The translations under genes were made by a program, and so were the position numbers. From Alphaproteobacteria bacterium (GTDB taxonomy: Bacteria > Pseudomonadota > Alphaproteobacteria > UBA828), in NCBI GenBank assembly GCA_965214705.1, contig OZ243972.1:3200001-3264000 (forward strand): DNA of 64,000 nucleotides, written 5' to 3'. Below are positions 10,254 through 26,747 of the stretch, in pieces (the first letter of the stretch is position 1; every line of letters begins with the position of its first letter). Under the pieces are notes generated by a model, which worked only from the letters and a program-made list of their open reading frames with translations, searched no databases and was not told the DNA's origin.

Positions 10254-10943
10254 TCACCACGGGATGATCGTGCGCTCGGGCGCGTGCCAGAAGGCGGGCT
10301 GAGCGCCGGGCTCGGCAGGCTCGACCTGATCGATGCGCTCGATCAGGGCGGCGGCGGCGTCCTCCGGCGGGCGTGCTTCCTGGCGTTCGTCGTCGAAGGT
10401 CATGGCGGTCGCGACCATGCCGGGGTGCAGGACCACCGCGGCGATGCCGCGCTTCCCAAGATCGTGGGCGAGGTTGACCGCCACCATATTGGCCGCGCAC
10501 TTGGAGACGCGATAGCCGTAGAGCCCGCCCGAGCGGTTGTCGCCGAGCGAGCCGATGCGGCTGGTGATGAAGGCGACCGTCGACCCCGGCTTCAGCCGAC
10601 CCAGCAGGGCCTCCGTCACACGGAGCGGACCCAGCGTGTTGACCTCGAACTGCCGGCGGATGGCGTCGTAGTCGAGCGCGCCCAACTCGTCGCGCGCGGC
10701 AATCCCGGCGTTGTTGATGAGCAGATCGAGCGTCGTGCTGGAGTCCGCGAGCCGCTCGGCAAGGCCTTGCACCGCATCGTCGGAGGTCACGTCCACGCCG
10801 GGCTCGACCCTGATGCCGAGCGCCCGCAGCTCGTCGGAATCGCCCAGACAGGCCGCGATGACGGCGTCGCCGCGTGCGTGACAGGCGCGGCAGAGCGCGT
10901 TGCCGATGCCGCGATCGGCGCCCGTGACCAGAACGGTGCTCAC
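10254..10943 (-). CDS. short-chain dehydrogenase/reductase (CsgA-like)
   Basis: TGADRGIG, NNAG, YRVSK catalytic motif, LHPGMV. Confidence 0.9.
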   Translation of the reverse strand: MSTVLVTGADRGIGNALCRACHARGDAVIAACLGDSDELRALGIRVEPGVDVTSDDAVQGLAERLADSSTTLDLLINNAGIAARDELGALDYDAIRRQFEVNTLGPLRVTEALLGRLKPGSTVAFITSRIGSLGDNRSGGLYGYRVSKCAANMVAVNLAHDLGKRGIAAVVLHPGMVATAMTFDDERQEARPPEDAAAALIERIDQVEPAEPGAQPAFWHAPERTIIPW

Positions 10944-10973
10944 GGCACAGCCTGCCGCCCCGGCCTGCGTCGT

Positions 10974-12989
10974 TCAGGCGACCCGGAGCGTCGGCTGCTC
11001 ATTGCGCGCCTGCCCCGGCACCTCCCAGTGGGCCGCGGTGCGGCGGCGCAGCATGTCGCGGAACTGCCGGGTGGTGTTGGGTAGAAGCTCGCCCGTGCCC
11101 CAGTCCACGATCACGCCGTACTGGCGAATCAGGTCGAGCGCGTCGAGCTCCTTGCTGCGGTACTTGGCTGCGATGTCCTCCGCATCCACGTCGAGCCAGG
11201 CGTGGCGCTGGGTGCGGATGCGCTCGCGCTCAGCCGCGGTCGCTGCTTCATCCACCTCGTATTCGGCGAGGTCGGCATCGATCTCGCGGACCACGACGCC
11301 ATAGTCCTTCTTCGCCCGCTCGATGGAGACGTAGCCGTCGGCCACGTCCTCGCACACCGTTGCGGGATCGCGCGTGAGGGGGTCGCCGAGCCCGCCGCCG
11401 CCGGCCGACGGCCGGGTCACGGTGTCGCCGGCCTCCACCGGCACGCCCGAGAAGATCGAGCCCAGGTAGCGTTCGCCCTGCGTGCCGGGATTGACCCAGA
11501 CCCCGTGCGGAATCGACGGCAGCCCGCCCCAGAGCCCCCAGGTCACCGAGCGCTCGCGGTCGCAGCAGTAAGAGACCACCGAGCGCTCCGCCTTGGTGAG
11601 GATCGCGCCCTTCTCGACGCCGAGGCCGCCGCGCGAGTTGCCGGGCCCGCCGGAATCGACGATGAGCTCGTGGCCGGTGGTCAGCACCGGGGCGAGCCGC
11701 TCCTGCCCCTCGAAGGGCTGGGTGCCGAGCTGGACGCCGAAGACCGGCCCGGTGGCGCCCCAGCCGTCGCGGCCGTTGCGCGCGCCCCAGCCGCCCACCA
11801 TCCAGTCGTACCACATGAAGTAGGGGCGGTCCTCCTTGCGGCCGTCGCGCCCGCCGATCAGCAGGTACTCGAGGTTGAAGGTGCAGGCCATGGCGCGCTC
11901 GGGCAGGATTTCGGCCCAGAGCTCGAACACCGAGTTCATGATCTTCTCGAACGGGCCCGAGCAGAAGCCCGCGACAGGCGTCGGCCAGTCCGCGTTGACC
12001 ACGGTGCCCTTGGGTCCGAGATCGACCGTGACCACCCGGTAGAAGCCGGAGTTCAGCGGGATGTCGGGCGATTGCATCTTGGTGCCGGCGACGATGGCCG
12101 CGAAGGCGCCGCCGTAGCAGCAGTTGAGGAAGGTCGAGATCGTCTTCGGGTGCGAGCCGGAGAGATCGTAGTGCACGCTGTCGCCGTCGATGGTCATCTT
12201 GATGCGGATCGGGATCAGCCCCTCGCCGGCGACCGGGTCCACGTCGATGTAGTCCTCGGTCTCCCACACGCCGTCGGGCAGCCTGGCGATGCGCTGGCGA
12301 GTCAGCGTCTCCACGTAATCCTGCACCTCGGCGAAGGAGGTCTGGATCACGTCGACGCCGTACTTGTCGCAGAGCCGGCCGACCTCCCGCTCCGCGACGT
12401 TGCAGGCCTCGGCCTGGGCCTGGAGGTCGCCGATGATGTCGGCGGGCGCGCGGGTGTTGTTGGCGATCAGCTCCGCCACGTCCGAGAGGTACTCGCCCTT
12501 GCTGTAGACCCGTACCGGCGTGATGCGGAGCCCCTCGGCCATGTGGTCGAGCGCGCTCACGTTGAACGAGCCCGGCACCGCGCCGCCGACATCGGCCCAG
12601 TGCCCGTTGGCCTGGGAGAAGCCGAGGTGGATGCCCTTGTAGAAAATGGGGCGGACGATGCGCGTGTCGTTGAAGTGGGTGCCGCCCTGGTAGACGTCGT
12701 TCACGACGAAGGTATCGCCGGGGTGGATGTCGTCGCCGAACTTGTTGATGACGGCCTGGGCGGTGTAGTGCAGCGTGCCCACGTGGGCGGCGATGTCGCC
12801 CGAGCCCTGCATGATGGTGTTGCCTTCGGTGTCGCAGATCGCCGAGGAAAAATCCCGCGACCAGATCACGAAGGAGTAGCAGGTGCGGAAAATCTGCTCC
12901 GCCATCTGGTCGACGATGTTGACGTAGGCGTTCTTGAGCACCTCGAAGGTCACGGGGTCGAGCGTGTAGCCTTCTCCGTTCTTGCTCAT
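10974..12989 (-). CDS. hydantoinase B / oxoprolinase family subunit
   Basis: LDPVTFEV, RDFSSAI, HVGTL, GTHFND, GHWADVGG, GGGGLGDP. Confidence 0.92.
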   Translation of the reverse strand: MSKNGEGYTLDPVTFEVLKNAYVNIVDQMAEQIFRTCYSFVIWSRDFSSAICDTEGNTIMQGSGDIAAHVGTLHYTAQAVINKFGDDIHPGDTFVVNDVYQGGTHFNDTRIVRPIFYKGIHLGFSQANGHWADVGGAVPGSFNVSALDHMAEGLRITPVRVYSKGEYLSDVAELIANNTRAPADIIGDLQAQAEACNVAEREVGRLCDKYGVDVIQTSFAEVQDYVETLTRQRIARLPDGVWETEDYIDVDPVAGEGLIPIRIKMTIDGDSVHYDLSGSHPKTISTFLNCCYGGAFAAIVAGTKMQSPDIPLNSGFYRVVTVDLGPKGTVVNADWPTPVAGFCSGPFEKIMNSVFELWAEILPERAMACTFNLEYLLIGGRDGRKEDRPYFMWYDWMVGGWGARNGRDGWGATGPVFGVQLGTQPFEGQERLAPVLTTGHELIVDSGGPGNSRGGLGVEKGAILTKAERSVVSYCCDRERSVTWGLWGGLPSIPHGVWVNPGTQGERYLGSIFSGVPVEAGDTVTRPSAGGGGLGDPLTRDPATVCEDVADGYVSIERAKKDYGVVVREIDADLAEYEVDEAATAAERERIRTQRHAWLDVDAEDIAAKYRSKELDALDLIRQYGVIVDWGTGELLPNTTRQFRDMLRRRTAAHWEVPGQARNEQPTLRVA

Positions 12990-13011
12990 TGTCTCTTCCT
13001 CGCTCTCTGCA

Positions 13012-15066
13012 TCAGCCTTCGGCCTGCGGAATGTGCATGACGATGGTGTGCCAGGGGTCGACCTCGGCCTTGAGGCCGGGCGGCACCAGCACCGTGGAAT
13101 CGAGCTGCTCGATGATCGCCGGCCCTTCGACCACCGCGCCGGCGTGCAGGGCGTCGCGGTCGTAGATGGGCGTCATGATCGCGTCAGGCGCCTCGTCGAA
13201 GACCACCGGCCGCTCGGTCTCGGGCGCCGGCGCCGAGCGGTCCATCTCTTCCCTCGCGAACTCCGCCTTCTGCGAAAGCCCGGTGGCGGTGACCGTGAGG
13301 CGGTAGATCTCGACCGGCGCATCGGGCCTGGAATAGTTGTGCTCGCGGCCGTGCTCCTCGTGGAACTGGGCGATCGCCGCATCCAGCGAGCCGGCAGTCG
13401 CGTCCACCTTGATCGACATGGAGCGCCACTGGCCGAGGTAGCGCATGTCGACGAAGCGCTCGAACTGCATGCGGTCCTCGGTCACGCCCTCGTGTAGGAG
13501 CCGCTCGCGGCCCTCGTCCTCCAGCGTGCTGAAGGTCTGCTCGACCTCCTCGATCTTCGCATCGTCGGTAGAGCGCAGATACATCTGCGACATGTCGTGC
13601 TTGATATCCACCAGCAGGCAGCCGAGCGCGGAGGTGACGCCGGGGTTCGGCGGTACCAGCACGGTCGGGATCGAAAGGTCGCGGGCGAGCGCCACGCCAT
13701 GCAGCGGCCCGGCGCCGCCGAACACTGTCAGCGCGAAGTCGCGCGGGTCGTAGCCCCGCCGGATCGAGACCAGGCGCACGGCGTCCGCCATGTTGGCGTT
13801 GGCCACCTGGAGTATGGAGACAGCCGCCTCCTGCACCGTGAGCCCGAGCGGGTCGGCGATGCGGCGCTTGATCGCCTCTTCGGCGAGCGAGCGGTCCAGG
13901 GTGACGGCGCCGCCCGCGAGCCTGTCGCTGATGCGGCCGAGGACGATGTTGGCGTCGGAGTTGGTGGGCTCCACGCCGCCCCGGCCGTAGCAGGCGGGAC
14001 CGGGCGACGAGCCTGCCGACTGCGGGCCGTTGCGGAGCGAGTTGGCCTCGTCGATCCAGGCGAGCGAGCCGCCGCCCGCGCCGATGGTCAGCACCTCGAT
14101 GCTAGGGAAGCAGATCGGGTAGCCGTACTGCACGTACCAGTCGGTGGTGACCCGCAGGTTGCCCCGGTCGCAGAGCGAGACGTCGGTGCTGGTGCCGCCC
14201 ATGTCCAGGCTGATCGAGTTCTCGTAGCCAGCGAGCTGGGCGACGAAGCGGCTCGCGATGGCGCCCGCCGCGATGCCAGAAGCGGCGAGCCGGGCCGCGA
14301 ACTTGGACGCCGTGCTCTCGGTCATCACGCCGCCACCGGAGTGCAGCAGCAGAATGTCCTCTTCGTAGCCGCCTTCGCGGAGCCGCGTGGCGAGGCGCCC
14401 CACGTAGTCGCCGGCGACCGGCGCGAGCACGGCGTTGGCCACCGTCGTCGAGAAGCGCTCGTGCTCGAAGATCTCGGGCATGATCTCGCTGGAGAGCGAG
14501 ATGGAGGCGCCGGGGACTTCCTCTTCGAGGATGTCGCGCATGCGGCGCTCGTTCTCGGGATTGGCGAAGGCGTTGGCGAAGCAGACGGCGATGGTCGTCA
14601 CGCCGCGCTTGTTGATGATGCGGGCGGCCTCCCGCGCCTCCGCCTCGTTCACCGGCTCGATGACCGCGCCGCTGTAGTCGATGCGCTCGCTGACCACCAG
14701 GCGGTTGCGGCGCTGGATGTAGGGCGGCGCCATCTCCTTATAGGTGTCCCACAGGTCGTCGCGGGTGCCTCGGCGGATCTCGATCACGTCGCGGAAGCCC
14801 TTGGTGGTGACCATGATCGCGGGCGGGAAGTTGCGCGTGATCAGCGCGTTGGTGGCGAGCGTGGTGCCGTGAGCGAAGAGCACCATGTCCTGGAGGTCCA
14901 CCCCGCCGGCCCTGATGCCCTCCAGCACGCCGTCGATGGGGTCGGGCGTCGTCGGGGTCTTGGCGACGCGCATCTGGCCGGACGCTTCGTCTAGGACGCA
15001 CACGTCGGTGAAGGTGCCGCCGACATCACACGCGACGCGAACGGCCGCCCTCGACACGTCATTCAT
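13012..15066 (-). CDS. hydantoinase A / oxoprolinase family ATP-binding subunit
   Basis: DVGGTFTD, HGTTLATNA, DMGGTSTD, IGAGGGS, GPQSAGSSPGPACYG, FGGAGPLH. Confidence 0.93.
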   Translation of the reverse strand: MNDVSRAAVRVACDVGGTFTDVCVLDEASGQMRVAKTPTTPDPIDGVLEGIRAGGVDLQDMVLFAHGTTLATNALITRNFPPAIMVTTKGFRDVIEIRRGTRDDLWDTYKEMAPPYIQRRNRLVVSERIDYSGAVIEPVNEAEAREAARIINKRGVTTIAVCFANAFANPENERRMRDILEEEVPGASISLSSEIMPEIFEHERFSTTVANAVLAPVAGDYVGRLATRLREGGYEEDILLLHSGGGVMTESTASKFAARLAASGIAAGAIASRFVAQLAGYENSISLDMGGTSTDVSLCDRGNLRVTTDWYVQYGYPICFPSIEVLTIGAGGGSLAWIDEANSLRNGPQSAGSSPGPACYGRGGVEPTNSDANIVLGRISDRLAGGAVTLDRSLAEEAIKRRIADPLGLTVQEAAVSILQVANANMADAVRLVSIRRGYDPRDFALTVFGGAGPLHGVALARDLSIPTVLVPPNPGVTSALGCLLVDIKHDMSQMYLRSTDDAKIEEVEQTFSTLEDEGRERLLHEGVTEDRMQFERFVDMRYLGQWRSMSIKVDATAGSLDAAIAQFHEEHGREHNYSRPDAPVEIYRLTVTATGLSQKAEFAREEMDRSAPAPETERPVVFDEAPDAIMTPIYDRDALHAGAVVEGPAIIEQLDSTVLVPPGLKAEVDPWHTIVMHIPQAEG

Positions 15067-15172
15067 TCCTAACGGTCCTCTCCCTTATGTCCCTGCAACC
15101 GACGGCTGCCGCCGCGCGCGGCGGCACAGCTTATTCGGAAGGCGCCCCGAGACCTAGGGTGAGAAAGGCGCC

Positions 15173-16051
15173 CTAACACTTGAGGATGGGGCGGGCGTTC
15201 TTGCCGGCGATGGCGGGGCGGAGCGCGCCCCACGCGTTGAACAGAGCCTCGTGAGCCTGCCAGGTTTCGTGGCTCAGGATGCGGACGATCACCAGGTTGC
15301 CGATGCGGGTGACGCCGGCCTCGGTGCCGTCCACGCCTTCGATCGCCTCGTGCACGTCGTCCTCGACATCCGGCGGCAGATCAGGCGCGTAGCCGAACGC
15401 CATTGCCATGTGCAGCCGGCCGAGCCAGAGCCGCTGCAGCGCGGCGATAGTCTCGGGCGTGGTCGCCACCAGGCGGTCGAGAGCGACCAGGCGGCCGCCG
15501 ATGACGATGCGGAACTCCGAGACCAGATGGTGGAAGCGAAAGACCTCGCCGTCGCCGTAGTGCACGCGGCCGGCCGAGACCATGTCGGTGGCGAAGAGCC
15601 GGGACGAGGGCTCCAGCGCGATCCGGTTGATCCGGTGCACCCGGCTGCGGGCGAAGGGGATCGCCTCGTCCGGGCAGAACTCCAGCAGCGCATTCTCGCC
15701 CACGTGGAGGTCCACGATCTCGCGCGAAATGGCGCCGCCGGGGCACTTGTAGAACTTGCTCGACGCGGTGGTGGTGAAGAGGGCGCGGGTGCCGGGCTCC
15801 AGCACGCCGTGGAAGTGCGAGACGTCGCCCTCGACGAAGCCGCCGCCGCTGTTCACCAGCAGCATGAACGGCTGGTCGTCGTGGTCCTGGTAGTGGTAGC
15901 CCTGCCACTGGAAGGGAATGCGCCAGCAGAGCGGGTCGATTTCCGTGCGCCCGAGCCTGCTCGACGCGCGGACGTTCATCAGCGCGTACTTACCGACGAT
16001 CCATTCGGGATCAGGCTGTACCGGCGCGCTGCTCGGCTCCGTCATGCCCAT
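15173..16051 (-). CDS. ureD: urease accessory protein UreD
   Basis: [37 protein letters not shown]; position in the ure operon. Confidence 0.85.
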
Positions 16052-16655
16052 CCATCAGGAGAACGTCGCGCTCGATCCAGGCGATCACCTCGGCAAGGCC
16101 ATCGCCGGCGCGCAGGTTGGTGAAGAGGAAAGGCCGCGTGCCCCGCATCTTCCTGGAATCGCGCTCCATCACGCCGAGGTCGGCGCCTACCATCGGCGCG
16201 AGGTCGATCTTGTTGATGACCAGCAGCGGCGACTTGGTTATGCCGGGTCCGCCCTTGCGCGGGATCTTGTCGCCCTCGGCCACGTCGATCACGTAGATGT
16301 AGCTGTCCACCAGCTCGGGGCTGAAGGTCGCCGCGAGATTGTCGCCGCCGCTCTCGACGAAGACGATGTCGAGGTCGGGATGCAGCGCCGCCATCTCCTC
16401 GATGGCGTGGGCGTTCATCGAGACATCCTCGCGGATCGCCGTGTGCGGGCAGCCGCCGGTCTCGACCCCGGCCACGCGCTCGGGCGCGATGGCGCCCGAC
16501 TTGATGACGAACTCGGCGTCTTCTTTGGTGTAGATGTCGTTGGTGATGGCGGCCAGCGAATGGTTCGGCCCCATGCTGCGGCAGAGCGACACCAGCAGCG
16601 CCGTCTTGCCCGACCCCACCGGCCCGCCGATGCCGATCCTGACCGGCTTGCGCAT
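16011..16655 (-). CDS. ureG: urease accessory GTPase UreG
   Basis: [33 protein letters not shown]. Confidence 0.95.
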
Positions 16656-16730
16656 CCACAAGTCTCCCCGTTTTCCTGCGTCTAACGTCGCGTTTCCGAA
16701 ACGAAAGAGTAGAGTGCTCCCGTCCCCGTC

Positions 16731-16872: not shown

Positions 16873-17571
16873 TCACGACATGCAGAGCCGCGTGTGCAGG
16901 CGCTCGTGGCGCATGCTGGCGACATCGAGGCCGGCGGTGGCGCTGCCGAGTGTGTCCAGCTCCATGGCGCAGGCGTTCTCGGTGCCCTGTGTCAGCAGCG
17001 GCCAGGCCTCCCTGACGATGCGCTGGCTCTCGATCTGGCCGAGCGGGATCAGCCGTGCCCCGACGCTGACGAGGTTGGAGAGCGCGGCGTGTAGGAAGGC
17101 GAGCACCGCGTCGTCGGAGCCGATCCCCTGCGCCTCCGCCGCCGCGCCGAAGATCACCGCCTGATGTCCCTCGCAGCGCCCGTCGCGCACCGCCTCCGCA
17201 AAGGGCGCGAGGGACTCCGCCGAGAAGACGTCGCGATAGGCGCCCAGCAGCGCGCGCCCGGTCTTGAACGAGGCCTCGCGCGCTTCCCGACTGAGCTTGA
17301 GCGCGCCCACGACGTGGTCGAGGTCCACCAGCCCGTCGAGATCGCCTGCGGCGGCGCGGCGATGGGCATGGGCGACCGCGGCGCCATCCGTCGGCACGGC
17401 GGCGTAGCCGAGCCAGTCCCGGCAGGCGCTCTCGAAGCTCGCGGCGTCGTCCAGCGCGCCCGAGTCGATCCAGGTCTCGAAGCCGTAGGAGTGGTTGAAC
17501 GCGCCGGTCGGGAACGAGGCGTTCGCAACTTGCAGCAGGTAGAGGAGCCGGTCGGGCGCGTCAGTGCTCAT
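16873..17571 (-). CDS. ureF: urease accessory protein UreF
   Basis: FPTGAFNHSYGFE, LIPLGQ, RHERLHTRLCMS C-terminus. Confidence 0.92.
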   Translation of the reverse strand: MSTDAPDRLLYLLQVANASFPTGAFNHSYGFETWIDSGALDDAASFESACRDWLGYAAVPTDGAAVAHAHRRAAAGDLDGLVDLDHVVGALKLSREAREASFKTGRALLGAYRDVFSAESLAPFAEAVRDGRCEGHQAVIFGAAAEAQGIGSDDAVLAFLHAALSNLVSVGARLIPLGQIESQRIVREAWPLLTQGTENACAMELDTLGSATAGLDVASMRHERLHTRLCMS

Positions 17572-18076: not shown

Positions 18077-19783
18077 TTAGCGGAAGTAGAAGAGCTGGGT
18101 CAGCGGCAGGGTCTTCGCCGGCTTCACCGTGATGCGCTCGCCATCGACGTAGACGTTGTAGGTCTCCGGGTCGATCTCGATATCCGGCAGCGCGTCGTTG
18201 TGGATCATGTCGCGCTTGGAGATGGTGCGGCAGCGCTTCACCGGCACCAGCCTCTGGGTCTCGATCTGGTCCGCAAGCCCGTTGTCGAGCGCCGCCTTGG
18301 TGACGAAGGAGTAGCTCGTCCGCTTCGGGTTGACGCCGAGGGAGCCGTACTGCGGCCGGTACTTGAGCGGCTGGCCGGTCATCAGCGAGCCCGCCGGGTC
18401 GCCCATCACCGCGTGCGAGATGAAGCCGCCCTTCAGCGTCACCTCGGGCTTCGCGATGAAGAACTCGGGCCGCCAGAACACCAGGTCCGCGAGCTTGCCC
18501 GGCGTGATCGAGCCCACGTAGGAATCGACGCCGAAGCAGATCGACGGGTTGATCGTCACCTTGGCGAGGTAGCGCTTGATCCTGAAGTTGTCGTTGCCCG
18601 AGCCGTCCTCCGAGAGCCGTCCGAAGCGCACCTTGTTGACAGCCGCGAGTTGGAAGGAGCGCTGCGCGCTCTCTGCCGCGCGGCCCACGCCCTGGCTGTC
18701 GGAGCCGATCATGCTGATCGCGCCCATGTCGTGCAGCACGTCCTCGGCCCGCATGGTCTCCGCGCGAGCGCGGCCCTGAATGAAGGCGATGTCCGTCGGC
18801 ACGCTCTTGTTCAGGTTGTGGCAGGTGATCAACATGTCGATCTCTTCGTCGTACGTGTTGATCGAGAACGGGTTGGTCGGGTTGGTCGAGCTCGGAAGCA
18901 GGTTGGGCTCGCCGCAGACCCGCATCATGTCCGGCGCGTTGCCGCCGCCCGCGCCCTCGCAGTGGTAGATGTGCATGACGCGGCCGTTGATGGCCGCGAT
19001 GGTGTCCTCGTAGTAGCCGGTCTCGTTGAGCGTGTCGGCGTGAATCTGGACCTGAAAGTCGTACTCGTCCGCAAGCTCCATGGTGGTCTCGATGGCGGCG
19101 GGCGAGGACGACCAGTCCTCGTGGATCTTGAGCCCCGTGGCGCCGGCCAGGATCTGCTCCACCAGAGAGCCCGGCGTCGCCGCGTTGCCCTTGCCGAAGT
19201 TGCCGAAGTTGAGCGGGATGTCCGCCATCGCCTCCAGCATCCGCTGGATGTTGAAGACGCCGGGACACTCGATGCCCACCGTCTTCGGCCCCGAGCCGCC
19301 GCCGATCACCGTGGTGAAGCCCGCGTTCTGGTACTCGTAGAGCTGCTGCACGGAATCGAAGTGGGGGTGGATGTCTACGAAGCCCGGCGTGCAGATCATG
19401 CCCTCGACCGAGAGGATGTCGGTGTTGGGCGAGACGATCAGCCCCGGCGTGATGTTCATGGTGTCCGGGTTGCCGGACTTGCCGACGCCGACGATCTCGC
19501 CGTCCAGCACGCCGATGTCGCCCTTCACGACGCCGAGGATCGGATCGATGATCACGGCGTTGGTGATCACCATGTCGAGCCCGCCGTCGCTCTGCTTCCA
19601 CTTCGACGCCTGGCCCATGCCGTCGCGGATGGTCTTGCCGCCGCCGAAGACGAGCTCGTCGCCGTAGGTGGTGTAGTCGTGCTCGATCTCGGCCACGAGG
19701 CCGGTGTCGGCGAGGTGAATCTTGTCCCCGGTGGTCGGCCCGTACTGCGCGGCGTAGTCCGGGCGGGCGATCTTCATGCTCAT
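18077..19783 (-). CDS. ureC: urease alpha subunit-like nickel amidohydrolase (divergent)
   Basis: YGPTTGD, FGGGKTIRDGMGQ, HPH, GLKIHEDW, HADTLNE, HCEGAGGG, PSSTNPT, CHNL, SDSQ. Confidence 0.9.
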   Translation of the reverse strand: MSMKIARPDYAAQYGPTTGDKIHLADTGLVAEIEHDYTTYGDELVFGGGKTIRDGMGQASKWKQSDGGLDMVITNAVIIDPILGVVKGDIGVLDGEIVGVGKSGNPDTMNITPGLIVSPNTDILSVEGMICTPGFVDIHPHFDSVQQLYEYQNAGFTTVIGGGSGPKTVGIECPGVFNIQRMLEAMADIPLNFGNFGKGNAATPGSLVEQILAGATGLKIHEDWSSSPAAIETTMELADEYDFQVQIHADTLNETGYYEDTIAAINGRVMHIYHCEGAGGGNAPDMMRVCGEPNLLPSSTNPTNPFSINTYDEEIDMLITCHNLNKSVPTDIAFIQGRARAETMRAEDVLHDMGAISMIGSDSQGVGRAAESAQRSFQLAAVNKVRFGRLSEDGSGNDNFRIKRYLAKVTINPSICFGVDSYVGSITPGKLADLVFWRPEFFIAKPEVTLKGGFISHAVMGDPAGSLMTGQPLKYRPQYGSLGVNPKRTSYSFVTKAALDNGLADQIETQRLVPVKRCRTISKRDMIHNDALPDIEIDPETYNVYVDGERITVKPAKTLPLTQLFYFR

Positions 19784-19806: not shown

Positions 19807-20313
19807 TCAGTCGCCGTCCTTGCCGCCGAACTTCTCGTCGGGCGGGGTCTGGACCGGATAGCGCTCGCCCTCGAAGCAGTAGCCCTCGGCCCTGAGGCGG
19901 CGCATGGTCTGCTCCTTGATGATGCCGGAGCGGACCGAGCCGTTGGTCATGTTGTTCATGCCGTAGGCGACCTGGCGGCCGACGTAGCCGGTGATCTGCA
20001 CCTTGCGGCTCTGGCCGGGCTCGAAGCGCACGGCGCTGCCGGAAGGCACGTCGAGGCGCATGCCGAACGCCGCCTCGCGATCGAAGGCCATCGCCCTGTT
20101 GCACTCGGCGAGGTGATAGTGGGCGCCGATCTGGATCGGCCGGTCGCCGGTGTTGACCATGACGATCTCGATCGCGGGGCGATCCGCATTGATCTCGATG
20201 TCGCCCTCGGCGAAGTCGATGGCGCCGCACTTCTCCGGCTCGCCCACCTCGAACGCCTCGTCCGGCACGATCGATTCCGGCAGCGGCGGCGGGCTCCATT
20301 TTCTCTTAGCCAT
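19807..20313 (-). CDS. ureB: urease beta subunit-like protein (N- and C-terminal extensions)
   Basis: NTGDRPIQIGAHYH, GMRLDVPSGSAVRFEPG. Confidence 0.9.
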   Translation of the reverse strand: MAKRKWSPPPLPESIVPDEAFEVGEPEKCGAIDFAEGDIEINADRPAIEIVMVNTGDRPIQIGAHYHLAECNRAMAFDREAAFGMRLDVPSGSAVRFEPGQSRKVQITGYVGRQVAYGMNNMTNGSVRSGIIKEQTMRRLRAEGYCFEGERYPVQTPPDEKFGGKDGD

Positions 20314-20338: not shown

Positions 20339-20650
20339 CTACTCGCGGATCGGGTTCATCACCGTGACGAGCTTGGTCCCGTCCGGGAACATGGCCTCGA
20401 CCTGGACGATCTTCATCATCTCGGGCACGCCCGTCATCACGTCCTCGCGCTTCAGGATGGTGGCGCCGTACTCCATCATGTCTGTCAGCATGGGGATGCT
20501 GCCCTCGCGTGCGCGCTCTAGAATCTCGTCGCAGATCAGCGCAATCGCCTCGGGGTAGTTCAGCTTGACGCCGCGATCGAGGCGCCGCCGGGCCATCTCC
20601 GCCGCGGCCCAAATCTGTATCCGTTCTTCTTCACGTACAGTGAGATGCAT
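20339..20650 (-). CDS. ureA: urease gamma subunit
   Basis: MHLTVREEE, GVKLNYPEA, FPDGTKLVTV. Confidence 0.93.
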   Translation of the reverse strand: MHLTVREEERIQIWAAAEMARRRLDRGVKLNYPEAIALICDEILERAREGSIPMLTDMMEYGATILKREDVMTGVPEMMKIVQVEAMFPDGTKLVTVMNPIRE

Positions 20651-20985
20651 GAGCCCCCGCTCCCTCTAACGCGCGACATCCGCATAATTTGAGCGACGAC
20701 ACGATTCCATGTGACCGGCGCCCCTAAGAAAAGTCCCCGAAAGGATATACCCGAACGAGTAGTATGTCCCGAGCGGCTGGAGTGGCACAGCCGTCAGGCT
20801 CATCTATTGTTCGTGCCTTCCCCCTGATTGACACAACGTTGCTCCCGACCCCACGTCCGGCCGACCTTGCGCCTGTTGGATGCGCGTGCCGAAGGCGGTA
20901 GGCTTGATCCAAAATACTCCATGATGTTGACCTGCGGGTCCGAGCAGTCGCAGGACGCCGCCGAGCGCGGCAGGGAGGGCTGGCC

Positions 20986-21741
20986 GTGGACAGCCAGATG
21001 GAGTGGTTTTCGGGAGAGCTGGACAAGGCAAGCTCCTTCGATCAGGCGCTGGACATCCTCGCCCAAATTACCGCCGACATGGGTTACACGCAGGTCCTCT
21101 ACGCCTATCAGCGAACAGCGCGTCTCGCGGACGGCGAGTGGGTTCCACTCAAGCTCAACGTCCGTAACTTTCCTGCAGGCTGGGAGCGTCAGTGGGAGGC
21201 CTTCGGCTCTCACGATCCGTACTACCGGGCATGCTTCGAGACGACCCTGCCCTTCGATTGGCACGACGTTCAACGACGCGAACATCTTCACCCGGCCCAG
21301 GCAAAAGCATGGCGCTATCTCGCGGACCTCGGGCTCGGTCGCGGTATGACCATACCTGTCCATCTTCCCTGGGGGCGGTTCGCGGTGGTCAGCGCCATCG
21401 TCGACCGGTCGACGAGCAATTGGTCGCACATCAAGGATGCGACGCGGGATCCCATGTTTCACCTCACCCACCTCTTTCACGACACCGTGCGACGCAATGG
21501 ATTCGAGGATCAGGTGCAGGTCGCGTCATGCGTCCGACTCAGTCCGCGAGAAACGGAATGCCTGCAATGGGCGGCGGCGGGCAAGACCTCACCCGAGATA
21601 GCCCGGATCATCGACCGATCGGTCGAAACCGTGCGCCTCCACCTCAAGAACGCCTTCCACAAGCTTGGTGCGAACAACAAGGGACATGCGATTGGCAAGG
21701 CCGTGCAACTCGGATTGGTCGAGCCGATCGACCGGCATTGA
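20986..21741 (+). CDS. LuxR-family regulator with autoinducer-binding domain (LuxR solo)
   Basis: NFPAGW...DP.....FDW N-terminal domain; LSPRETECLQWAAAGKTSPEIA HTH; no luxI in the window. Confidence 0.9.
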   Translation: MDSQMEWFSGELDKASSFDQALDILAQITADMGYTQVLYAYQRTARLADGEWVPLKLNVRNFPAGWERQWEAFGSHDPYYRACFETTLPFDWHDVQRREHLHPAQAKAWRYLADLGLGRGMTIPVHLPWGRFAVVSAIVDRSTSNWSHIKDATRDPMFHLTHLFHDTVRRNGFEDQVQVASCVRLSPRETECLQWAAAGKTSPEIARIIDRSVETVRLHLKNAFHKLGANNKGHAIGKAVQLGLVEPIDRH

Positions 21742-21890
21742 CTACCCAATTATGTTAACCTGTTTATGGAGCCTCGTTCGGGGAGTGTCCGTCGACTAGA
21801 TTATTCCCTAGCCTGCCAACTCGATGGCCGTGCCAGGCCGGCTGACGGAGCAGGCTGGGCGGTTGTAACCGGAAATCAGGGAGGTGGTCG

Positions 21891-23198
21891 ATGCGGCGCA
21901 AACTCACATTAGGGAAGGCCGTTGGCGCGGCCCTTGCAGCGATAGGCATGGTGGCGCTGGCCGGTCTGGCGAACAATTCGGCGCAGGCCGCGACGGACGA
22001 GGAGATCATCCTTTGCACGATCGATGATCTTTCCGGCGATTTCTCGATCATGGCGACACCCAAGACCTACGGCTATCAGCTGGCGGTCAAGGAGGTGAAC
22101 GAGGCTGGCGGCATCATGGTGGATGGCGCCCAGAAGATGATCAAGCTGATCACCTACGATGGGCAGTCCCAGGTCAAACGCTATCAGGAGCTTGCACAAA
22201 AGTGCATTTTCGACGACGAGGCCGATGTCGTCATGGCAGCGTACACGGGCGCCGAGCGTGAGGCGGCCCGCCGCGAAGTGGTCCGCAACGAGGTCATCTA
22301 CTGGCATAACAATCAGGGCGAGGGCGGGATTGCCGACAGGTACTCGTTCTTCTCCGGCCCCACGCCTGAGCAGCAGGTCCTGCCGGCGCTCAAGTGGATG
22401 ATCGAGAATTACGGCACGCGGATGATTTACATCGGTGCTGACTACAACTTCTGCCGGGCGATCGGTATGTGGACCCGAACGGCCGCCAATCTCTATGGCG
22501 GAACCATCGAGTATGAGGAGTACTTCCCGTTCGGTGTCTCGCAATGGCAGGCGACGATCGACAGAATTCAGAAGGTCGCGCCGGACTTCCAGGTCCATTG
22601 TCTCGTCGGTGCCGAGCATGTGCAGTTCTATCCGCAGGCGCAGTCGGCAGGCCTGTCGACGCCGACATGGTCAAACGTGACTATCGCGGACGGCTACGAG
22701 CACAAGCGTTTCGCGCCGCCCTCGCTGGCGAACATGCATGTCTCGCCGGGCTACATCGAGGATGTGCCCCACGAGAACAGCGTGGAGTTCGTCCGCAAGC
22801 TGCGCGAAATGTTCCCAGACATGCTGTACGCAAACGAGCACGCGGGCTTCGGTTATGTGGCGGTGAAGGCAATGGCTAACGCCTGGGCCAAGGCCGGCAC
22901 GACGGACACCGACGCGGTGATCGACGCCTTGCAGTCGGATATCGAGGTACCGGAGGCGCCGGGGGGTCCGTGGAAGCTCCATGGCGACCAGCATCACGGC
23001 GCCATGCATTCATACCTGTTCAAGGTGAACGACGATCACAGCCTGACGCTGATCGCTGACCTCGGTTACACCGAGCCAACATTCCTCAGCGACATCGGCG
23101 TGAACATGCGTGAGAAGGCGCCGGGTCGTCAGTATCTGCCGCCGGACAATCCGGCATGGGCGCCCTTCTTCGAGGGTCAGGAACGCGTCGGGCAGTGA
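21891..23198 (+). CDS. UrtA/AmiC-like ABC substrate-binding protein
   Basis: Signal peptide, LAVKEVNEAGG, YDGQS, PEQQ, GADYNF; periplasmic binding protein type 1. Confidence 0.85.
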   Translation: MRRKLTLGKAVGAALAAIGMVALAGLANNSAQAATDEEIILCTIDDLSGDFSIMATPKTYGYQLAVKEVNEAGGIMVDGAQKMIKLITYDGQSQVKRYQELAQKCIFDDEADVVMAAYTGAEREAARREVVRNEVIYWHNNQGEGGIADRYSFFSGPTPEQQVLPALKWMIENYGTRMIYIGADYNFCRAIGMWTRTAANLYGGTIEYEEYFPFGVSQWQATIDRIQKVAPDFQVHCLVGAEHVQFYPQAQSAGLSTPTWSNVTIADGYEHKRFAPPSLANMHVSPGYIEDVPHENSVEFVRKLREMFPDMLYANEHAGFGYVAVKAMANAWAKAGTTDTDAVIDALQSDIEVPEAPGGPWKLHGDQHHGAMHSYLFKVNDDHSLTLIADLGYTEPTFLSDIGVNMREKAPGRQYLPPDNPAWAPFFEGQERVGQ

Positions 23199-23212
23199 AT
23201 TGCCCCGGCGCT

Positions 23213-23293: not shown

Positions 23294-24205
23294 ATGGATG
23301 TCGCGGCCGACGTCTTCAGCTACGCCTATCAGTATTTCGACAATATCGGATTTCTGATTCTCTCGGCGTCCGGCCTCATCATCATTTTCGGGATGATGGG
23401 CGTCATCAACATGGCTCATGGCGAGTTGATGATGATCGGCGCCTACATAACGGCGTTCTCCTATCATGCCGGTGTTCCAGCCCCCTTGGCCATCATCTTC
23501 GCTGGCATCGGTGCCGGCCTAGCCGGCATGGTTCTGGAGCGCCTGGTCATCCGGCACTTTTACAAGCAGCTCCTCTCGTCGCTGGTGGTGACATGGGGGC
23601 TGAGCCTGATGATCAGCCAAGGATTCCTGCTGATATTCGGGCCGACGATACTTAACGTGCCGACTCCGTTCGGCAACTTTCCAGTGGCAGAGCAGACCTT
23701 CGGGATCTATCGGCTTGTCCTGTTCGGTGGTGCACTGGCCATCGTCGCCGGAGTCTGGGCCGTGTTCACCTTCACCAAGTTCGGCACTCACGCCCGGGCC
23801 ACGATGGAAGACCCGGACATGGCCGACGCGCTGGGCGTGAACACGCGCAACATCTACGTCCTCACTTTCGGCATTGGTGCCGCCATGGGCGGCGTCGCAG
23901 GCGGCATGTTCGCGCTGACGGCGACGATTTCGCCGTTCTTCGGCATCAACTACACGCCGCTCGCATTCATCACCGTCGTGGTCGGCGGTGGTGCCAACGT
24001 CATCACCGGGCTGCTGTCGAGCGTGATGGCGCTCGCCGGCGTACAGACCGCAGTCAACAACTTGGTCAATGTCTATGTCGGCTACATTGCCATGATGGGC
24101 GCGGCTTTCTTCATCCTGCTCCTGCTCCCCAGGGGAATTTCGGAGTATCTCGAGCGCCGCAAGATACGGACGGAGCGGAAGGTGAGCCGCAGTGCGCCAG
24201 CATAG
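23294..24205 (+). CDS. UrtB/LivH-like permease
   Basis: GLIIIFGMMGVINMAHGELMMIGAY. Confidence 0.9.
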   Translation: MDVAADVFSYAYQYFDNIGFLILSASGLIIIFGMMGVINMAHGELMMIGAYITAFSYHAGVPAPLAIIFAGIGAGLAGMVLERLVIRHFYKQLLSSLVVTWGLSLMISQGFLLIFGPTILNVPTPFGNFPVAEQTFGIYRLVLFGGALAIVAGVWAVFTFTKFGTHARATMEDPDMADALGVNTRNIYVLTFGIGAAMGGVAGGMFALTATISPFFGINYTPLAFITVVVGGGANVITGLLSSVMALAGVQTAVNNLVNVYVGYIAMMGAAFFILLLLPRGISEYLERRKIRTERKVSRSAPA

Positions 24206-25292
24206 CGTTTTGGACCGCTACCTCGGCCCGCTGAACGGTCCTCACACGATGGGCCGCGGAGTCGCCTTCTGGGTCGGTTTCGTGGTCGTGGTTGCCGTGC
24301 TCGCGAGCTTTCCCGAGTACATGCGCCGCTACGATATTATAAATCTCAGCAACTTCCTGATTTCGGGCTTCCTCGCCCTTAGCCTCGGCCTGATCTGGGG
24401 TTATTGCGGCGTTCTCAGCCTTGGCCAGGCCGCGTTCCACGGAATCGGCGGCTATGCCTACGGTATCGTTGCGCTCAATCTCTTCAACGCGCACGGCAAT
24501 ACCGACATCGCGTTCTTCGCCGGTATTGTGGTCCCCGTTGTCTTTGCCGCAATCATTGGCGGGATCATGTTCTTCGCGCGATTGCGCGGCGTCTATATCG
24601 CGATCTTGATGCTCGTGGTCTCGCTGCTGATCGGCACGTTCATGCGTCAGACTGCCGATCCGAGCTACACAATCGGTGCGGCCTATTTGGGAGGAATGAA
24701 CGGACTCAGGCCCGCCTCCGTCGACGACCCGTTGCTCCCCAGCCTAATTTTTGGCCTCGGCGAGACGGTGATCGAGTTGGACGGCCGCCGCCCTGCCTTC
24801 TTCTACTTCGTTCTGGGGCTGCTGGTGGCAGTCTATCTGGGCCTCCGCTGCTTGGTGAACTCCAGCTACGGCTACTTGTTGATCGGCTGCCGGGAAGATC
24901 CTAACAGGACGGAGACTTTCGGTTACGATGTGCGTCTGATCCAGCTCGGCGTCTTCTGCATTGCTGCCGCGATCGCGGGGCTCTCGGGAGTGCTCTACAC
25001 GGCGTGGGGAACCTACATTCATCCGGACGGTTTCGGCGTCGCGCCCAACATTCTTGTCGTCATCTGGGTCGCGGTCGGCGGCCGCAAGGATCTCGGCGCC
25101 GCGATCGCGGGTGCGATCGTGCTCGAATGGGTATCGCTCAGACTTGCGGCCGAAGGCGAAATTGCGTTCCTTGTGCTGGGCGCCATTCTAGTCGGCGTTA
25201 TGCTGATCGCGCCGAACGGCCTCGGCATCACTATCGGCGACTACATCCGGCGAGGCCACGATCGGGCGATCGACTGGGTGCGTGCGCGGTGA
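24192..25292 (+). CDS. UrtC/LivM-like permease
   Basis: LIWGYCGVLSLGQAAF, GGMNG, VIWVAVGGR. Confidence 0.9.
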   Translation: MRQHSVLDRYLGPLNGPHTMGRGVAFWVGFVVVVAVLASFPEYMRRYDIINLSNFLISGFLALSLGLIWGYCGVLSLGQAAFHGIGGYAYGIVALNLFNAHGNTDIAFFAGIVVPVVFAAIIGGIMFFARLRGVYIAILMLVVSLLIGTFMRQTADPSYTIGAAYLGGMNGLRPASVDDPLLPSLIFGLGETVIELDGRRPAFFYFVLGLLVAVYLGLRCLVNSSYGYLLIGCREDPNRTETFGYDVRLIQLGVFCIAAAIAGLSGVLYTAWGTYIHPDGFGVAPNILVVIWVAVGGRKDLGAAIAGAIVLEWVSLRLAAEGEIAFLVLGAILVGVMLIAPNGLGITIGDYIRRGHDRAIDWVRAR

Positions 25293-26032
25293 GCGCGCTA
25301 GCCGAAAGGAGCGCCGCCACGGGCGTCATCGTGGAGACCCGGTCGCTAAGCAAGATATTCGGCGGCGTGCGGGCCGTGGATGGGCTCGATCTCTCCATCC
25401 AGGAGGGCGAAATCCATTGCATCATCGGTCCTAACGGCGCCGGCAAGAGCACCTTGTTCAAGCTCCTCATGGGGATCGAGCGGCCGACGGCAGGCGCGAT
25501 CGTTCTCGACGATCACGACATCACGCACATGGCGCCGCACCTTCGTGCGCGTCGCGGATTGGCCATCAAGTTCCAGTCAATGCAGGTCTATCAGGACCTC
25601 ACCGTCTATCAGAACCTCTTCATTCCTCTGCGCCGCCACCATCGGCCGCGCGAGATCCCCGATCGCTGTGCCGACTTGCTTACCCAGCTACAGCTTACGG
25701 ACACCGAAGAGCGGATCGTAGGCGATCTCTCGCACGGGCAGCAGCAGTGGCTTGCCATCGGCATGTCGATGGCGGTGGATCCCAAGGTGCTGCTCCTCGA
25801 CGAGCCGACCGCTGGCATGTCGCCAGAGGAGACGCGGCAGACTGCGGCAATCGTGCGTCAGCTCAACGAGGCGGGCGTGACAATCGCCGTGATCGAGCAC
25901 GACATGGCGTTCGTGCGCGACCTCGATACGCGAACGACGGTATTGCACTACGGCAAGGTGTTTGCTCAGGGCGCGTTCGCAGACATCGAGCGGGACGACG
26001 ACGTGCACCGCATCTATCTCGGGAAGATCTGA
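25289..26032 (+). CDS. UrtD/LivG-like ATP-binding protein
   Basis: GPNGAGKST, LSHGQQQW, LLDEPTAGM, IEHDM; GTG start overlaps the previous stop. Confidence 0.9.
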   Translation: MSALAERSAATGVIVETRSLSKIFGGVRAVDGLDLSIQEGEIHCIIGPNGAGKSTLFKLLMGIERPTAGAIVLDDHDITHMAPHLRARRGLAIKFQSMQVYQDLTVYQNLFIPLRRHHRPREIPDRCADLLTQLQLTDTEERIVGDLSHGQQQWLAIGMSMAVDPKVLLLDEPTAGMSPEETRQTAAIVRQLNEAGVTIAVIEHDMAFVRDLDTRTTVLHYGKVFAQGAFADIERDDDVHRIYLGKI

Positions 26033-26045
26033 GGAGCCCGGCGCG

Positions 26046-26747
26046 ATGCTCCTCGATGTCAGTGGCCTGACCTCCGGTTACGGCAAGGTGCGCATCGTCA
26101 ACGACGTCTCGCTCAGTGTGGAGGAGCAGGAGATCGTCGCAGTGATCGGCCGCAATGGTGTCGGCAAGACCACGCTGATGAAAACTCTGGTCGGGCTGAT
26201 CCGGGGACTTGCCGGCACTGTTGAGTTTCGCAGCCAGGATGTGACTCGGATGCGCGCTGCCGAACGGGCGCAGCTAGGTATCGGCTACGTGCCGCAGGGG
26301 CGTGGCATCTTCGCCCGCCTGTCAGTCGCCGACAATTTGCGGATGGGTGAGCAGATCGGTGGCAGGGGCAAGGCGCCTGATTATGACCGCGTGCACGAGT
26401 ACTTTCCGATCCTGAAGGAGCGTCAGGCGCAGAAGGCAGGCTCACTCAGCGGCGGAGAGCAGCAGCAACTCGCGATAGGTCGCGTCCTCGTGGGCCATCC
26501 CGAACTCGTGTTGCTGGACGAGCCCTCGGAGGGGATCCAGCCCAACATCGTTCAGTCGATCGGCGAGATCATCAAGCGGCTGCGGACCGAAGTTGGATTG
26601 ACCTTCGTAATCGTGGAGCAAAACCTTGATCTCATAAATGCTGTGGCCGACCGTTGCCTGGTTATCGACAAGGGTTCGATTATCGCACGCCTGGACCCCG
26701 CGGAGCTGGCGGACCCAGAGATCGCCCGCAAATACCTAGCAATCTAA
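26046..26747 (+). CDS. UrtE/LivF-like ATP-binding protein
   Basis: GRNGVGKTT, YVPQGR, LSGGEQQ, LDEPSEGIQP; GAGGAG RBS. Confidence 0.9.
   Translation: MLLDVSGLTSGYGKVRIVNDVSLSVEEQEIVAVIGRNGVGKTTLMKTLVGLIRGLAGTVEFRSQDVTRMRAAERAQLGIGYVPQGRGIFARLSVADNLRMGEQIGGRGKAPDYDRVHEYFPILKERQAQKAGSLSGGEQQQLAIGRVLVGHPELVLLDEPSEGIQPNIVQSIGEIIKRLRTEVGLTFVIVEQNLDLINAVADRCLVIDKGSIIARLDPAELADPEIARKYLAI

Follow-up and report, generated by a model that had tools for sequence, protein, structure and literature searches.

The stretch analyzed here, called the window below, is 64,000 nucleotides from an alphaproteobacterial genome (lineage UBA828; contig OZ243972.1, positions 3,200,001 to 3,264,000). Between positions 10254 and 26747 it carries a urease gene cluster, genes for a LuxR-family regulator and a five-gene importer resembling the urea transporter UrtABCDE, and a pair of hydantoinase genes (hyuA, hyuB) followed by a gene for a short-chain dehydrogenase/reductase (SDR). 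The urease, importer and LuxR genes make up a self-contained cassette that recurs in at least 31 other loci. Judged by profile scores and residue signatures, its importer is not a canonical urea transporter, and its UreC is a bona fide member of the urease family that belongs to a distinct clade. The hyuA-hyuB-SDR genes are a separate unit, yet their association with the cassette is not random. We tentatively read the region as two units, the first importing and hydrolyzing an N-substituted urea or small ureide under control of the LuxR protein, the second an allied but dispensable ring opener; this reading seems to us possible, if a little short of an even chance.

A recurrent cassette of urease, importer and LuxR solo

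Genes were called from Pfam and NCBIfam profile scans of the open reading frames of the window, scored against the curated cut-offs. Fifty loci with relatives of the importer's substrate-binding protein (SBP) were fetched, and the 37 with at least 68% identity are taken as UrtA-orthologue loci. At least three ure genes are in view in 31 of these, and of the six without them, five are contigs that are cut; LuxR relatives can be seen in 24 of the 37 loci. The reverse search, with an alignment of the LuxR family as query, gave 49 loci (a single LuxR protein as query gave only three close kin), and in 46 of them the LuxR gene adjoins ure genes, a Urt-like orthologue or an isochorismatase-family hydrolase that marks the sister system described below. 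Among these 46, at least three ure genes are found in 37, a UrtA-like gene (at least 58% identity) in 39 and the hydrolase in 5; the remaining three are L199 and a pair of short contigs at about 40% identity.

The carriers are Alpha- and Betaproteobacteria and include Methylopila, Hansschlegelia, Hyphomicrobium, Chelatococcus, Camelimonas, Mesorhizobium, Ancylobacter, Roseovarius and Dongiaceae, along with several Burkholderiales metagenome-assembled genomes (MAGs) and one MAG labelled Gammaproteobacteria. Sequencing runs of sponge, coral and marine samples contain DNA nearly identical to the window. Clustering of 29 ure-linked loci gave just one further recurrent gene, HupE/UreJ, in nine of them. 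A first-pass annotation of this DNA had made conserved linkage of luxR, urt, ure and hyuAB across genomes a test of its proposal. The luxR-urt-ure part of the linkage is conserved (31/37 and 46/49 loci), but the hyuAB part is not: hyuAB adjoins the cassette in 2 of the 37 loci, plus L162, and neither hyuAB nor another ring-opening gene is in view in 29 of the 31 ure-linked loci. Literature listings gave nothing on a LuxR solo linked to urease or urea-transporter genes, nor did the LuxR parts of PMC12342949 and PMC6737895, and the cassette is apparently undescribed so far.

The importer and its binding pocket

The five transporter genes lie next to the urease in the layout of UrtABCDE (SBP, two permeases, two ATPases). 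All five have urea-transporter models as their best matches, yet each scores below its equivalog cut-off, and the same is true of the SBP orthologues, which reach 344-351 against the 494.8 of TIGR03669. These proteins are relatives of urea transporters that miss the canonical cut-offs, and the SBP keeps few of the residues that contact urea.

The last point rests on comparison with a crystal structure of UrtA, in which, according to the structural passages of PMC10392092, W120, S122, Y141, Q144, E146, Y190, F192, N246 and S274 surround urea; all of these except F192 are called strictly conserved there. Mutants at S122, Q144, Y190 or N246 are described in the same source as having greatly reduced or abolished urea binding, and W120A as having none. 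The window's SBP was aligned to UrtA chain 8HIC with HMMER, with a numbering offset of +23 that was consistent at all nine positions. The corresponding residues are Y118, G120, H139, Q142, E144, Y185, F187, V239 and T264, set against W, S, Y, Q, E, Y, F, N and S in UrtA. Only three of the eight urea-pocket residues are therefore kept (Q, E and Y), the others being replaced by Y, G, H, V and T. This signature is invariant in 37 ure-linked SBPs (one of them partial) and in six SBPs of the sister system, the sole change being F187 to Y in the sister group.

The cassette importer does not stand alone in the genomes that carry it. In all four cassette isolate genomes tested there are one or two canonical UrtA proteins above the TIGR03407 cut-off, and the genes of some lie no more than 10 kb from another ureC. 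The window's own genome (7.9 Mb in three contigs, 98.5% complete with 8.7% contamination) yielded no UrtA above that cut-off.

A distinct urease clade

UreC passes the TIGR01792 urease equivalog (748.8 against a cut-off of 680) and aligns over its full length with ureases of solved structure. H139, H141, K219, H221, D223, H248, H274, C321, H322, R338 and D362 match PDB 4Z42, so that the Ni ligands (four His and an Asp), the carbamylated Lys, the substrate His, the flap Cys-His pair and the flap-lock Arg and Asp are all intact; the roles of the catalytic and flap-lock residues are those given in the active-site description of PMC7433671. All of the Ni-accessory genes, ureE, ureF, ureG and ureD, are present in cis.

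Two to four ureC genes are found in 22 of 24 cassette genomes, the cassette copy being 82-90% identical to that of the window and the other copies 45-57%. The 27 cassette UreC proteins were compared with 22 paralogues, 20 from cassette genomes and two from the window's own genome. At 23 positions the two sets are divided almost completely, and at N282, S225, V366, Q336, I335, A249 and I319 all 27 cassette proteins differ from all 22 paralogues. Three of these changes fall in well-known stretches, N282 replacing the His of GGGHAPD, S225 the Gly of HEDWG and V366 the Met of SDSQxM; these three residues are invariant in the other ureases compared, which is not to say that they are formal criteria of the family. 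Q336 and I335 precede the flap-lock Arg, A249 lies beside a Ni-ligand His, and I319 is within the flap. The clade-specific residues thus lie one to three positions along the sequence from urea-binding or flap-lock residues, the latter as named in the parts of PMC7433671 that treat urea contacts and the flap lock. The V366 site corresponds to SPU Met367, which a docking study places in a hydrophobic cavity where substituents of thiourea inhibitors are accommodated (binding-site discussion in PMC10413841).

In a quick IQ-TREE run the 27 cassette UreC proteins formed one group, with a stem of 0.89 changes per site, SH-aLRT support of 100 and short internal branches. The urease had been called divergent at first pass, and both the tree and the residues set it apart as its own clade, though one within the TIGR01792 urease equivalog.

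The window's own genome has three ureC genes in all. The two further ureases lie on contig C2 (~92.7-96.1 kb and ~203-207 kb; L003/L137 and L002/L136) and have incomplete accessory sets: one consists of ureF, a fused ureAB and ureC beside an IS91-type transposase and an integrase, the other of ureABC and ureD. Among the ureases of this genome, ureE, ureF, ureG and ureD occur together only in the window's cluster.

The LuxR solo and a candidate operator

A search of the window's own genome for the LuxI family (PF00765) gave no match, in keeping with the earlier description of the regulator as a solo; control genomes gave none either, so the sensitivity of the search is unproven. The ligand domain of the LuxR family carries an invariant signature, F-x3-W-x3-W ... 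DPYY ... W, that is common to the ure-linked and sister groups. Relative to LasR, it amounts to Y56F, Y64W and T75Y, with W60, D73-P74 and W88 kept. Six residues, which we take to be the hallmarks of receptors for N-acyl homoserine lactones (AHLs), are W57, Y61, D70, P71, W85 and G113 of TraR; in an alignment with LasR and RhlR the LuxR solo keeps five of the six, Y61 being changed to W.

A palindrome, T(A/C)CCC-N4-5-GGGTA, was found by inspecting the upstream regions and lies 80-200 nt before urtA, ureA or the hydrolase of the sister system; k-mer enrichment upstream of urtA, ureA and luxR did not recover an operator. Sites with at most one mismatch near the start of urtA, ureA or the isochorismatase-family gene occur in 15 of the 28 loci that have LuxR in view, in 2 of the 13 that do not (one of the two being a 2.8-kb contig) and in 17 of 820 control windows placed at random in the same loci. 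In the 64 kb of the window there are two operator-like sites with one mismatch, against 0.25 expected. The presence of the palindrome tracks that of the LuxR solo, and we infer that the LuxR solo binds it.

Among the UrtA-orthologue loci, L088 (UrtA 90%) is the only one with full flanks and no ure genes; it has a perfect TACCCGTTTAGGGTA site upstream, and no ure or LuxR gene lies within 10 kb on either side. In six Burkholderiales loci (L101, L105, L110, L111, L113 and L115) the Autoind_bind LuxR protein is replaced by a 420-aa protein encoded upstream of urtA, with a C-terminal GerE as its sole domain. Upstream of urtA in L101, L105, L113 and L115, as well as in the short contig L121, the palindrome is a different one, ATCGTTCA..TGAACGAT. 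This looks like a swap of regulator on the same cassette.

A sister system with an isochorismatase-family hydrolase

Six loci combine a related importer (62-67% identical to the window's) and a related LuxR protein (51-57%) in the absence of urease genes. In all six, a cysteine hydrolase of the isochorismatase family precedes the importer. Its matches include biuret hydrolase 6XJM (62 bits), the N-carbamoylsarcosine amidohydrolase (CSHase)-related 3EEF (53 bits) and CSHase 1NBA (47 bits), and its score with the BiuH model is 63 bits, far under the cut-off of 370. In L091, genes for SoxB-like and SoxA-like proteins lie upstream of the hydrolase gene. L011/L123 has the gene order hyuA, hyuB, hydrolase and sister importer, then LuxR on the opposite strand, and the HyuA encoded there shares 95% identity with that of the window. 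A gap of 404 nt with an operator-like site separates hyuB from the hydrolase-importer unit in L123. The best homologue of the hydrolase in the window's genome is 40% identical, and the window itself has no orthologue.

The hyuA-hyuB-SDR unit

Relatives of HyuA were collected from 79 loci, drawn from the best 80 of 369 matches. In the genome of the window itself, at least eight paralogues of hyuA were counted. Twelve loci have a HyuA at least 93% identical. The ure genes lie upstream of hyuA in five of these (L007, L008, L009, L010 and L022); in another five (L012, L013, L014, L020 and L025) there is other DNA upstream, and hyuAB-SDR is kept together with a convergent monooxygenase. The remaining two are L011, with the sister arrangement, and L021, which is cut. 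In L012 the genes upstream of hyuA belong to IS66, and in all five ure-less close kin the cassette-type ureC is found elsewhere in the genome. The SDR follows hyuB only in close kin.

Alignment shows a leader of ~90 nt before hyuA that is conserved in both ure-linked (L007-L010, L022) and ure-less (L013, L014, L020, L025) loci, with the similarity stopping just upstream of it. Because the leader is conserved with or without ure genes upstream, hyuA carries its own 5' region. The ureD-hyuA spacer folds no better than shuffled sequences (z = 0.27). A consensus scan for promoters and terminators between 10 and 22 kb gave no promoter-like and three terminator-like sites, fewer than in shuffles and none of them at ureD-hyuA, and is uninformative in a GC-rich genome. 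In four metatranscriptome runs, parts of hyuAB and ure are matched by short contigs from relatives, while cover over luxR-urt is low; none of the contigs spans ureD-hyuA, and they show neither starts nor strand.

More distant orthologues (69-85% identity) occur in clusters of the form hyuA-hyuB-amiC-amiR-SBP-permease-ATPase. When 53 hyuAB loci were clustered, an AmiC-like gene was present in 31, AmiR (AmiR_N plus ANTAR) in 25 and an SBP in 22; no AmiR was found in the window's genome by tblastn. Judged by its context in relatives, the second unit is probably a hydantoinase/lactamase of the N-methylhydantoinase type. Its identification as the caprolactamase CapAB was rejected, the alpha and beta scores being 532.6 and 336.3 against cut-offs of 1000. 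The best NCBIfam match of the SDR is an IsoH-like dehydrogenase of the isoprene pathway, at 278 bits under a cut-off of 350; as an IsoH it would be linked to the convergent di-iron monooxygenase. In L054 (14197-15534) and nine other loci, a 445-aa protein with no Pfam family is encoded directly after hyuB, which makes it a candidate for the step that follows ring opening.

The association with the cassette is seen at the level of whole genomes. HyuAB orthologues (at least 70% identity, with a clear gap down to the next class at 63% or less) are present in 15 of 35 genomes with the ure cassette, in four of five with the sister cassette and in neither of the two that have only an importer of 46-48% identity; among 400 evenly sampled genomes of the class there is one, and it is from the same family. 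Genomes that hold both hyuAB and the cassette represent at least eight genera in several orders. Three types of junction between the two are known: ureD-hyuA in the window and its kin, luxR-hyuA-hyuB-amiC-amiR in L162 (HyuA 77%), and hyuB-hydrolase-importer-LuxR in L123. A terminator-like hairpin and no operator lies between luxR and hyuA in L162, and the operator-like sites of L162 and L123 are found at ure, urt or hydrolase promoters, not before hyuA.

Proposed function and its alternatives

In the two-unit reading, the first unit (15173-26747) would comprise the distinct-clade Ni-urease UreABC with UreEFGD, the Urt-like importer with its altered pocket, and the LuxR solo. The LuxR solo would bind the palindrome at the ureA and urtA promoters, turning on import and hydrolysis; the importer would take up a small urea-like compound, most likely an N-substituted urea or small ureide and not urea; and the urease-type enzyme would cleave it to ammonia, CO2 and an amine. 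Since this unit is complete alone in most genomes, the importer most likely supplies the substrate of its own enzyme. A urea derivative or ureide is preferred over urea because the SBP pocket has been rebuilt, because the same pocket occurs in a sister system with a non-urease amidase, because the cassette is an extra copy beside canonical urease and UrtA genes, and because the second-shell changes in UreC are invariant. The second unit (10254-15066), hyuA-hyuB-SDR, would act in an ATP-dependent manner with its own leader and be separately mobile and regulated, serving related ureide or creatinine-type nitrogen sources and being found recurrently beside the first unit or in the same genome. 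For sponge microbiomes, the pathway sections of PMC6742649 describe one route from creatinine by way of N-methylhydantoin and N-carbamoylsarcosine and another from creatine via urea; given these routes and the near-identical DNA in sponge, coral and marine runs, the two units may serve related nitrogen sources.

A more specific form of this idea is that the cassette urease acts in vivo as a Ni-hydrolase for N-substituted ureas or ureido acids, such as methylurea or the N-carbamoyl product of HyuAB, with the importer pocket rebuilt to match and the LuxR protein sensing the ureide and not an AHL. In that form we consider it doubtful.

Several observations weigh against the two-unit reading. UreC passes the urease equivalog with every first-shell catalytic residue intact, and a complete Ni-accessory set together with HupE/UreJ is just what a plain urease needs. 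The closeness of the clade-specific residues to the substrate is judged from sequence neighbors only, and the SBP pocket was mapped by alignment at ~25-30% identity, not structurally. The operator is imperfect in the window and absent at the one-mismatch level in 13 of the 28 LuxR loci. No second enzyme for the amine product is conserved in the cassette among the 29 ure-linked loci clustered, and the cassette-type urease is also present in four of five sister-cassette genomes, so that urease and hydrolase are not simple alternatives. Finally, the importer is found in only 3 of 49 further genomes with a hyuAB orthologue, and the kin are not independent, so the enrichment is overstated.

One alternative is plain urea scavenging, in which the cassette is an extra urea importer and urease under a lineage-specific LuxR protein, the substitutions are either neutral or serve to adjust affinity, the response to pH or the dynamics of the flap, and hyuAB-SDR is unrelated and was brought in by rearrangement. 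The intact Ni ligands, carbamylated Lys and flap Cys-His-Arg-Asp of a UreC that passes TIGR01792 fit this account, as do ureEFGD in cis, HupE/UreJ in 9 of 29 ure-linked loci and the urea-transporter models that best match all five transporter genes. The window's genome has no UrtA over the TIGR03407 cut-off, so this importer could be its urea importer, and the region has the look of a rearrangement hotspot, with IS66 in L012 and a luxR-urt segment that is lower in GC and absent from L008, L010 and L022. We nevertheless think it unlikely, since it must accommodate the replacement of five of the eight urea contacts of UrtA, among them W120 as well as S122 and N246, whose mutation cut or abolished binding in the experiments reported in PMC10392092. 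The sister SBP shares this pocket, and its partner enzyme is a cysteine hydrolase instead of a urease; canonical UrtA and other ureases are found alongside the cassette; and hyuAB is strongly enriched in cassette genomes, with three independent juxtapositions. A variant in which the substrate is again urea has the solo sensing AHLs or host signals, the urease serving for pH control or nitrogen release in dense or host-associated communities. The retention of five of six hallmark AHL-receptor residues, with only Tyr changed to Trp, the lack of a detected LuxI in the own genome (again with unproven sensitivity) and the sponge, coral and marine occurrences are all compatible with such signaling. 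It leaves unexplained both the altered SBP pocket and the LuxR of the same signature on the non-urease sister system, and the exchange of regulator and palindrome in Burkholderiales suggests control linked to substrate, not signal; we regard it as very improbable.

The first-pass annotation had instead proposed a single pathway in three steps, with a cyclic ureide such as N-methylhydantoin imported, opened by HyuAB with ATP, and then cleaved by the special urease in place of an N-carbamoylase. Parts of that proposal stand, namely the conserved luxR-urt-ure genes, the non-canonical importer, the distinct urease, the enrichment of hyuAB (an orthologue in 15 of 35 cassette genomes) and the gene order of L011/L123, in which hyuA, hyuB, hydrolase and sister importer follow one another with LuxR on the opposite strand at the end. 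It also gains from the adjacency of ureD and hyuA on one strand with no terminator-like site between them, from the hydrolase beside SoxB- and SoxA-like genes in L091, which fits an N-carbamoylsarcosine to sarcosine step, and from the window's genome, where the nearest hydrolase homologue is only 40% identical; no N-carbamoylase family was found among the window's scanned open reading frames, as had been noted earlier. Cleavage of the HyuAB product by the urease is chemically conceivable, for in bound urea it is the distal N, pointing into the channel, that leaves, according to the mechanistic account in PMC7433671, and the clade-specific changes flank that side. That said, urea is far smaller than an N,N-disubstituted ureido acid and the first shell of the active site is unchanged, and the cassette has no need of such a step: it is complete without hyuAB, no ring-opening gene being in view in 29 of 31 ure-linked loci and the orthologue being absent from 20 of 35 cassette genomes. 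Most cassette loci contradict the idea as a general rule. The hyuAB genes rarely adjoin the cassette, have their own leader, and in orthologous clusters bring their own AmiC/AmiR sensor and importer, implying a separately sensed and imported substrate. The gap with an operator-like site in L123 and the hairpin without operator between luxR and hyuA in L162 also count against the scheme, and there are close kin with ure-hyuAB but no luxR-urt, as well as kin with hyuAB but no adjacent ure. As a single pathway the scheme is improbable.

Relation to known systems and significance

The cassette shares with canonical ureABC-EFGD and urtABCDE its gene families, the five-gene importer layout, the Ni-accessory proteins and a UreC that passes the urease equivalog. 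It differs in a transporter below all cut-offs, an SBP with three of eight pocket residues, a separate UreC clade, coexistence with canonical UrtA and other ureases, and control by a LuxR solo in place of the UreR, NtcA or NtrC-type regulators known for ureases. LuxR solos that bind non-AHL ligands are known from the plant-associated OryR/XccR/PsoR type. The window's regulator resembles these in its Autoind_bind and GerE domains, the lack of a detected LuxI and the Tyr to Trp change at TraR Y61, but it keeps the Trp at TraR W57, and its family adjoins urease, Urt-like importer or hydrolase genes in 46 of 49 loci.

The two-subunit HyuA/HyuB of the window and the hydrolase after hyuB in L011/L123 recall the route from creatinine through N-methylhydantoin and N-carbamoylsarcosine to sarcosine, as do the sarcosine-oxidase-like genes beside the hydrolase in L091; in contrast to that route, the window lacks an orthologue of the hydrolase, the best in the genome being 40% identical. 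The sister-cassette hydrolase likewise matches the family of biuret, triuret and N-carbamoylsarcosine hydrolases, but with a BiuH score of 63 against 370, and it is not in the window. The amidase operon of Pseudomonas aeruginosa, with its AmiC sensor and AmiR antiterminator, is paralleled by the distant hyuAB clusters, with their AmiC-like protein, AmiR_N plus ANTAR and an amide/urea-type importer. These have HyuAB in place of an aliphatic amidase, and the hyuAB of the window has lost the AmiC/AmiR context.

To our knowledge, ureases are regarded as strictly urea-specific, and Urt-type importers are used as markers of urea use in the annotation of genomes and metagenomes. We take the cassette to be a system of the urease/Urt type whose recognition residues are altered and which is under a LuxR solo. 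That it marks a shift of substrate in the urease family is a real, though unproven, chance. If the substrate is different, calls of "urease" and "urea transporter" overstate ureolysis in methylotrophs, wastewater Burkholderiales and sponge or coral symbionts, and a route for substituted ureas and ureides (creatinine-derived compounds, methylated ureas) has so far been missed. A true ureide hydrolase would be the first natural change of specificity in the urease family and would come with a new class of LuxR-solo ligand; it would also make a LuxR solo that has a metabolic ligand and a predicted operator accessible to study. Carriers in culture include Methylopila capsulata, Hansschlegelia plantiphila, Chelatococcus reniformis and Camelimonas abortus. 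Should the substrate prove to be urea, the finding shrinks to a new regulatory arrangement of a second urease.

Organization of the locus and neighboring genes

The gene order given at first pass, with ureABCEFGD continuing into hyuA, hyuB and SDR on the minus strand and a LuxR solo leading a five-gene Urt-like ABC importer on the plus strand, was confirmed by the Pfam and NCBIfam models, and the span 10254-26747 agrees exactly (Table 1). The ureG gene is 16661-16011, and the frame at 16042-16770 is spurious.

Table 1. Features of the urease, importer and hydantoinase region, in window coordinates
Feature	Position	Strand or location	Basis
SDR (229 aa)	10254..10943	-	adh_short 104 bits; 30 nt downstream of hyuB
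hyuB (671 aa), Hydantoinase_B/oxoprolinase subunit	10974..12989	-	PF02538 490 bits
hyuA (684 aa), Hydantoinase_A subunit	13012..15066	-	PF05378 + PF01968 + PF19278 (Hydant_A_N, Hydantoinase_A, Hydant_A_C)
ureD-hyuA spacer, 106 nt	15067..15172	-	hyuA-proximal ~90 nt (from CTAGGTCTCG) is the leader conserved with hyuA
ureD	15173..16051	-	PF01774 146 bits
ureG	16011..16661	-	TIGR00101 334 bits vs cut-off 204
ureF	16873..17571	-	PF01730 140 bits
ureE	17561..18052	-	UreE_N + UreE_C
ureC (568 aa), alpha subunit of distinct urease clade	18077..19783	-	TIGR01792 748.8 vs 680
ureB	19807..20313	-	PF00699 128 bits
ureA	20339..20650	-	PF00547 136 bits
Operator-like palindrome TACCCGAACGAGTA	20748..20761	ureA-luxR spacer, ~98 nt upstream of ureA	1 mismatch to TACCC-N4-GGGTA
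LuxR-family solo (251 aa)	20986..21741	+	Autoind_bind 82.5 bits, GerE 53.6 bits
Degenerate half-palindrome TACCCAATTATGTTA	21743..21757	between luxR and SBP gene	2 mismatches, weak
Urt-like SBP (435 aa)	21891..23198	+	TIGR03669 340 vs 494.8; TIGR03407 156 vs 492.75
Urt-like permease B	23294..24205	+	TIGR03622 252.8 vs 374; TIGR03409 180 vs 250
Urt-like permease C	24192..25292	+	TIGR03727 327.7 vs 575.6
Urt-like ATPase D	~25289..26032 (start inferred)	+	TIGR03411 237 vs 304
Urt-like ATPase E	~26046..26747 (start inferred)	+	TIGR03410 267 vs 286

The GC content of the luxR-urt segment is 0.61-0.63, against 0.66-0.71, and both its GC and its GC3 are below those of the ure-hyu genes. In the close kin L008, L010 and L022 luxR-urt is absent, and a gene for an FAD monooxygenase directly follows ureA. 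Together these features suggest that the segment (20651-26747) was recently inserted or lost. An Rfam scan of the whole window at gathering thresholds gave no match.

On the importer side, the cluster is flanked by the FAD monooxygenase, then by an Opp-like ABC system and a D-hydantoinase/dihydropyrimidinase. A nickel SBP model is the best match of the Opp-like system, at 113 bits against a cut-off of 600, and its assignment as a nickel transporter was rejected. The D-hydantoinase/dihydropyrimidinase (34195-35682, minus strand; equivalog score 570 bits against 393), which was absent from the first-pass list, is a metal-dependent ring-opening enzyme encoded 7.4 kb from the importer, with no carbamoylase adjoining it.

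On the other side, convergent with the SDR, lie four genes for a soluble di-iron monooxygenase (6952-10068, plus strand), encoding a YHS-domain alpha subunit, a TmoB-like protein, an MmoB/DmpM coupling protein and a beta subunit; a ferredoxin or reductase gene is not among the four. A second alpha subunit of this kind, 53% identical, is encoded on contig C3 of the same genome. Further out (2084-6882, plus strand) are genes for an AsnC-family regulator, a 436-aa protein with three RidA/L-PSP stretches, an ABC permease and an NMT1/SsuA-like SBP, and these accompany the monooxygenase-hyuAB block in kin. Mobile-element remnants are also present in the window, in the form of a DruA-like/DDE_Tnp_1-associated protein and a DDE transposase (40663-41847 and 62599-63765).

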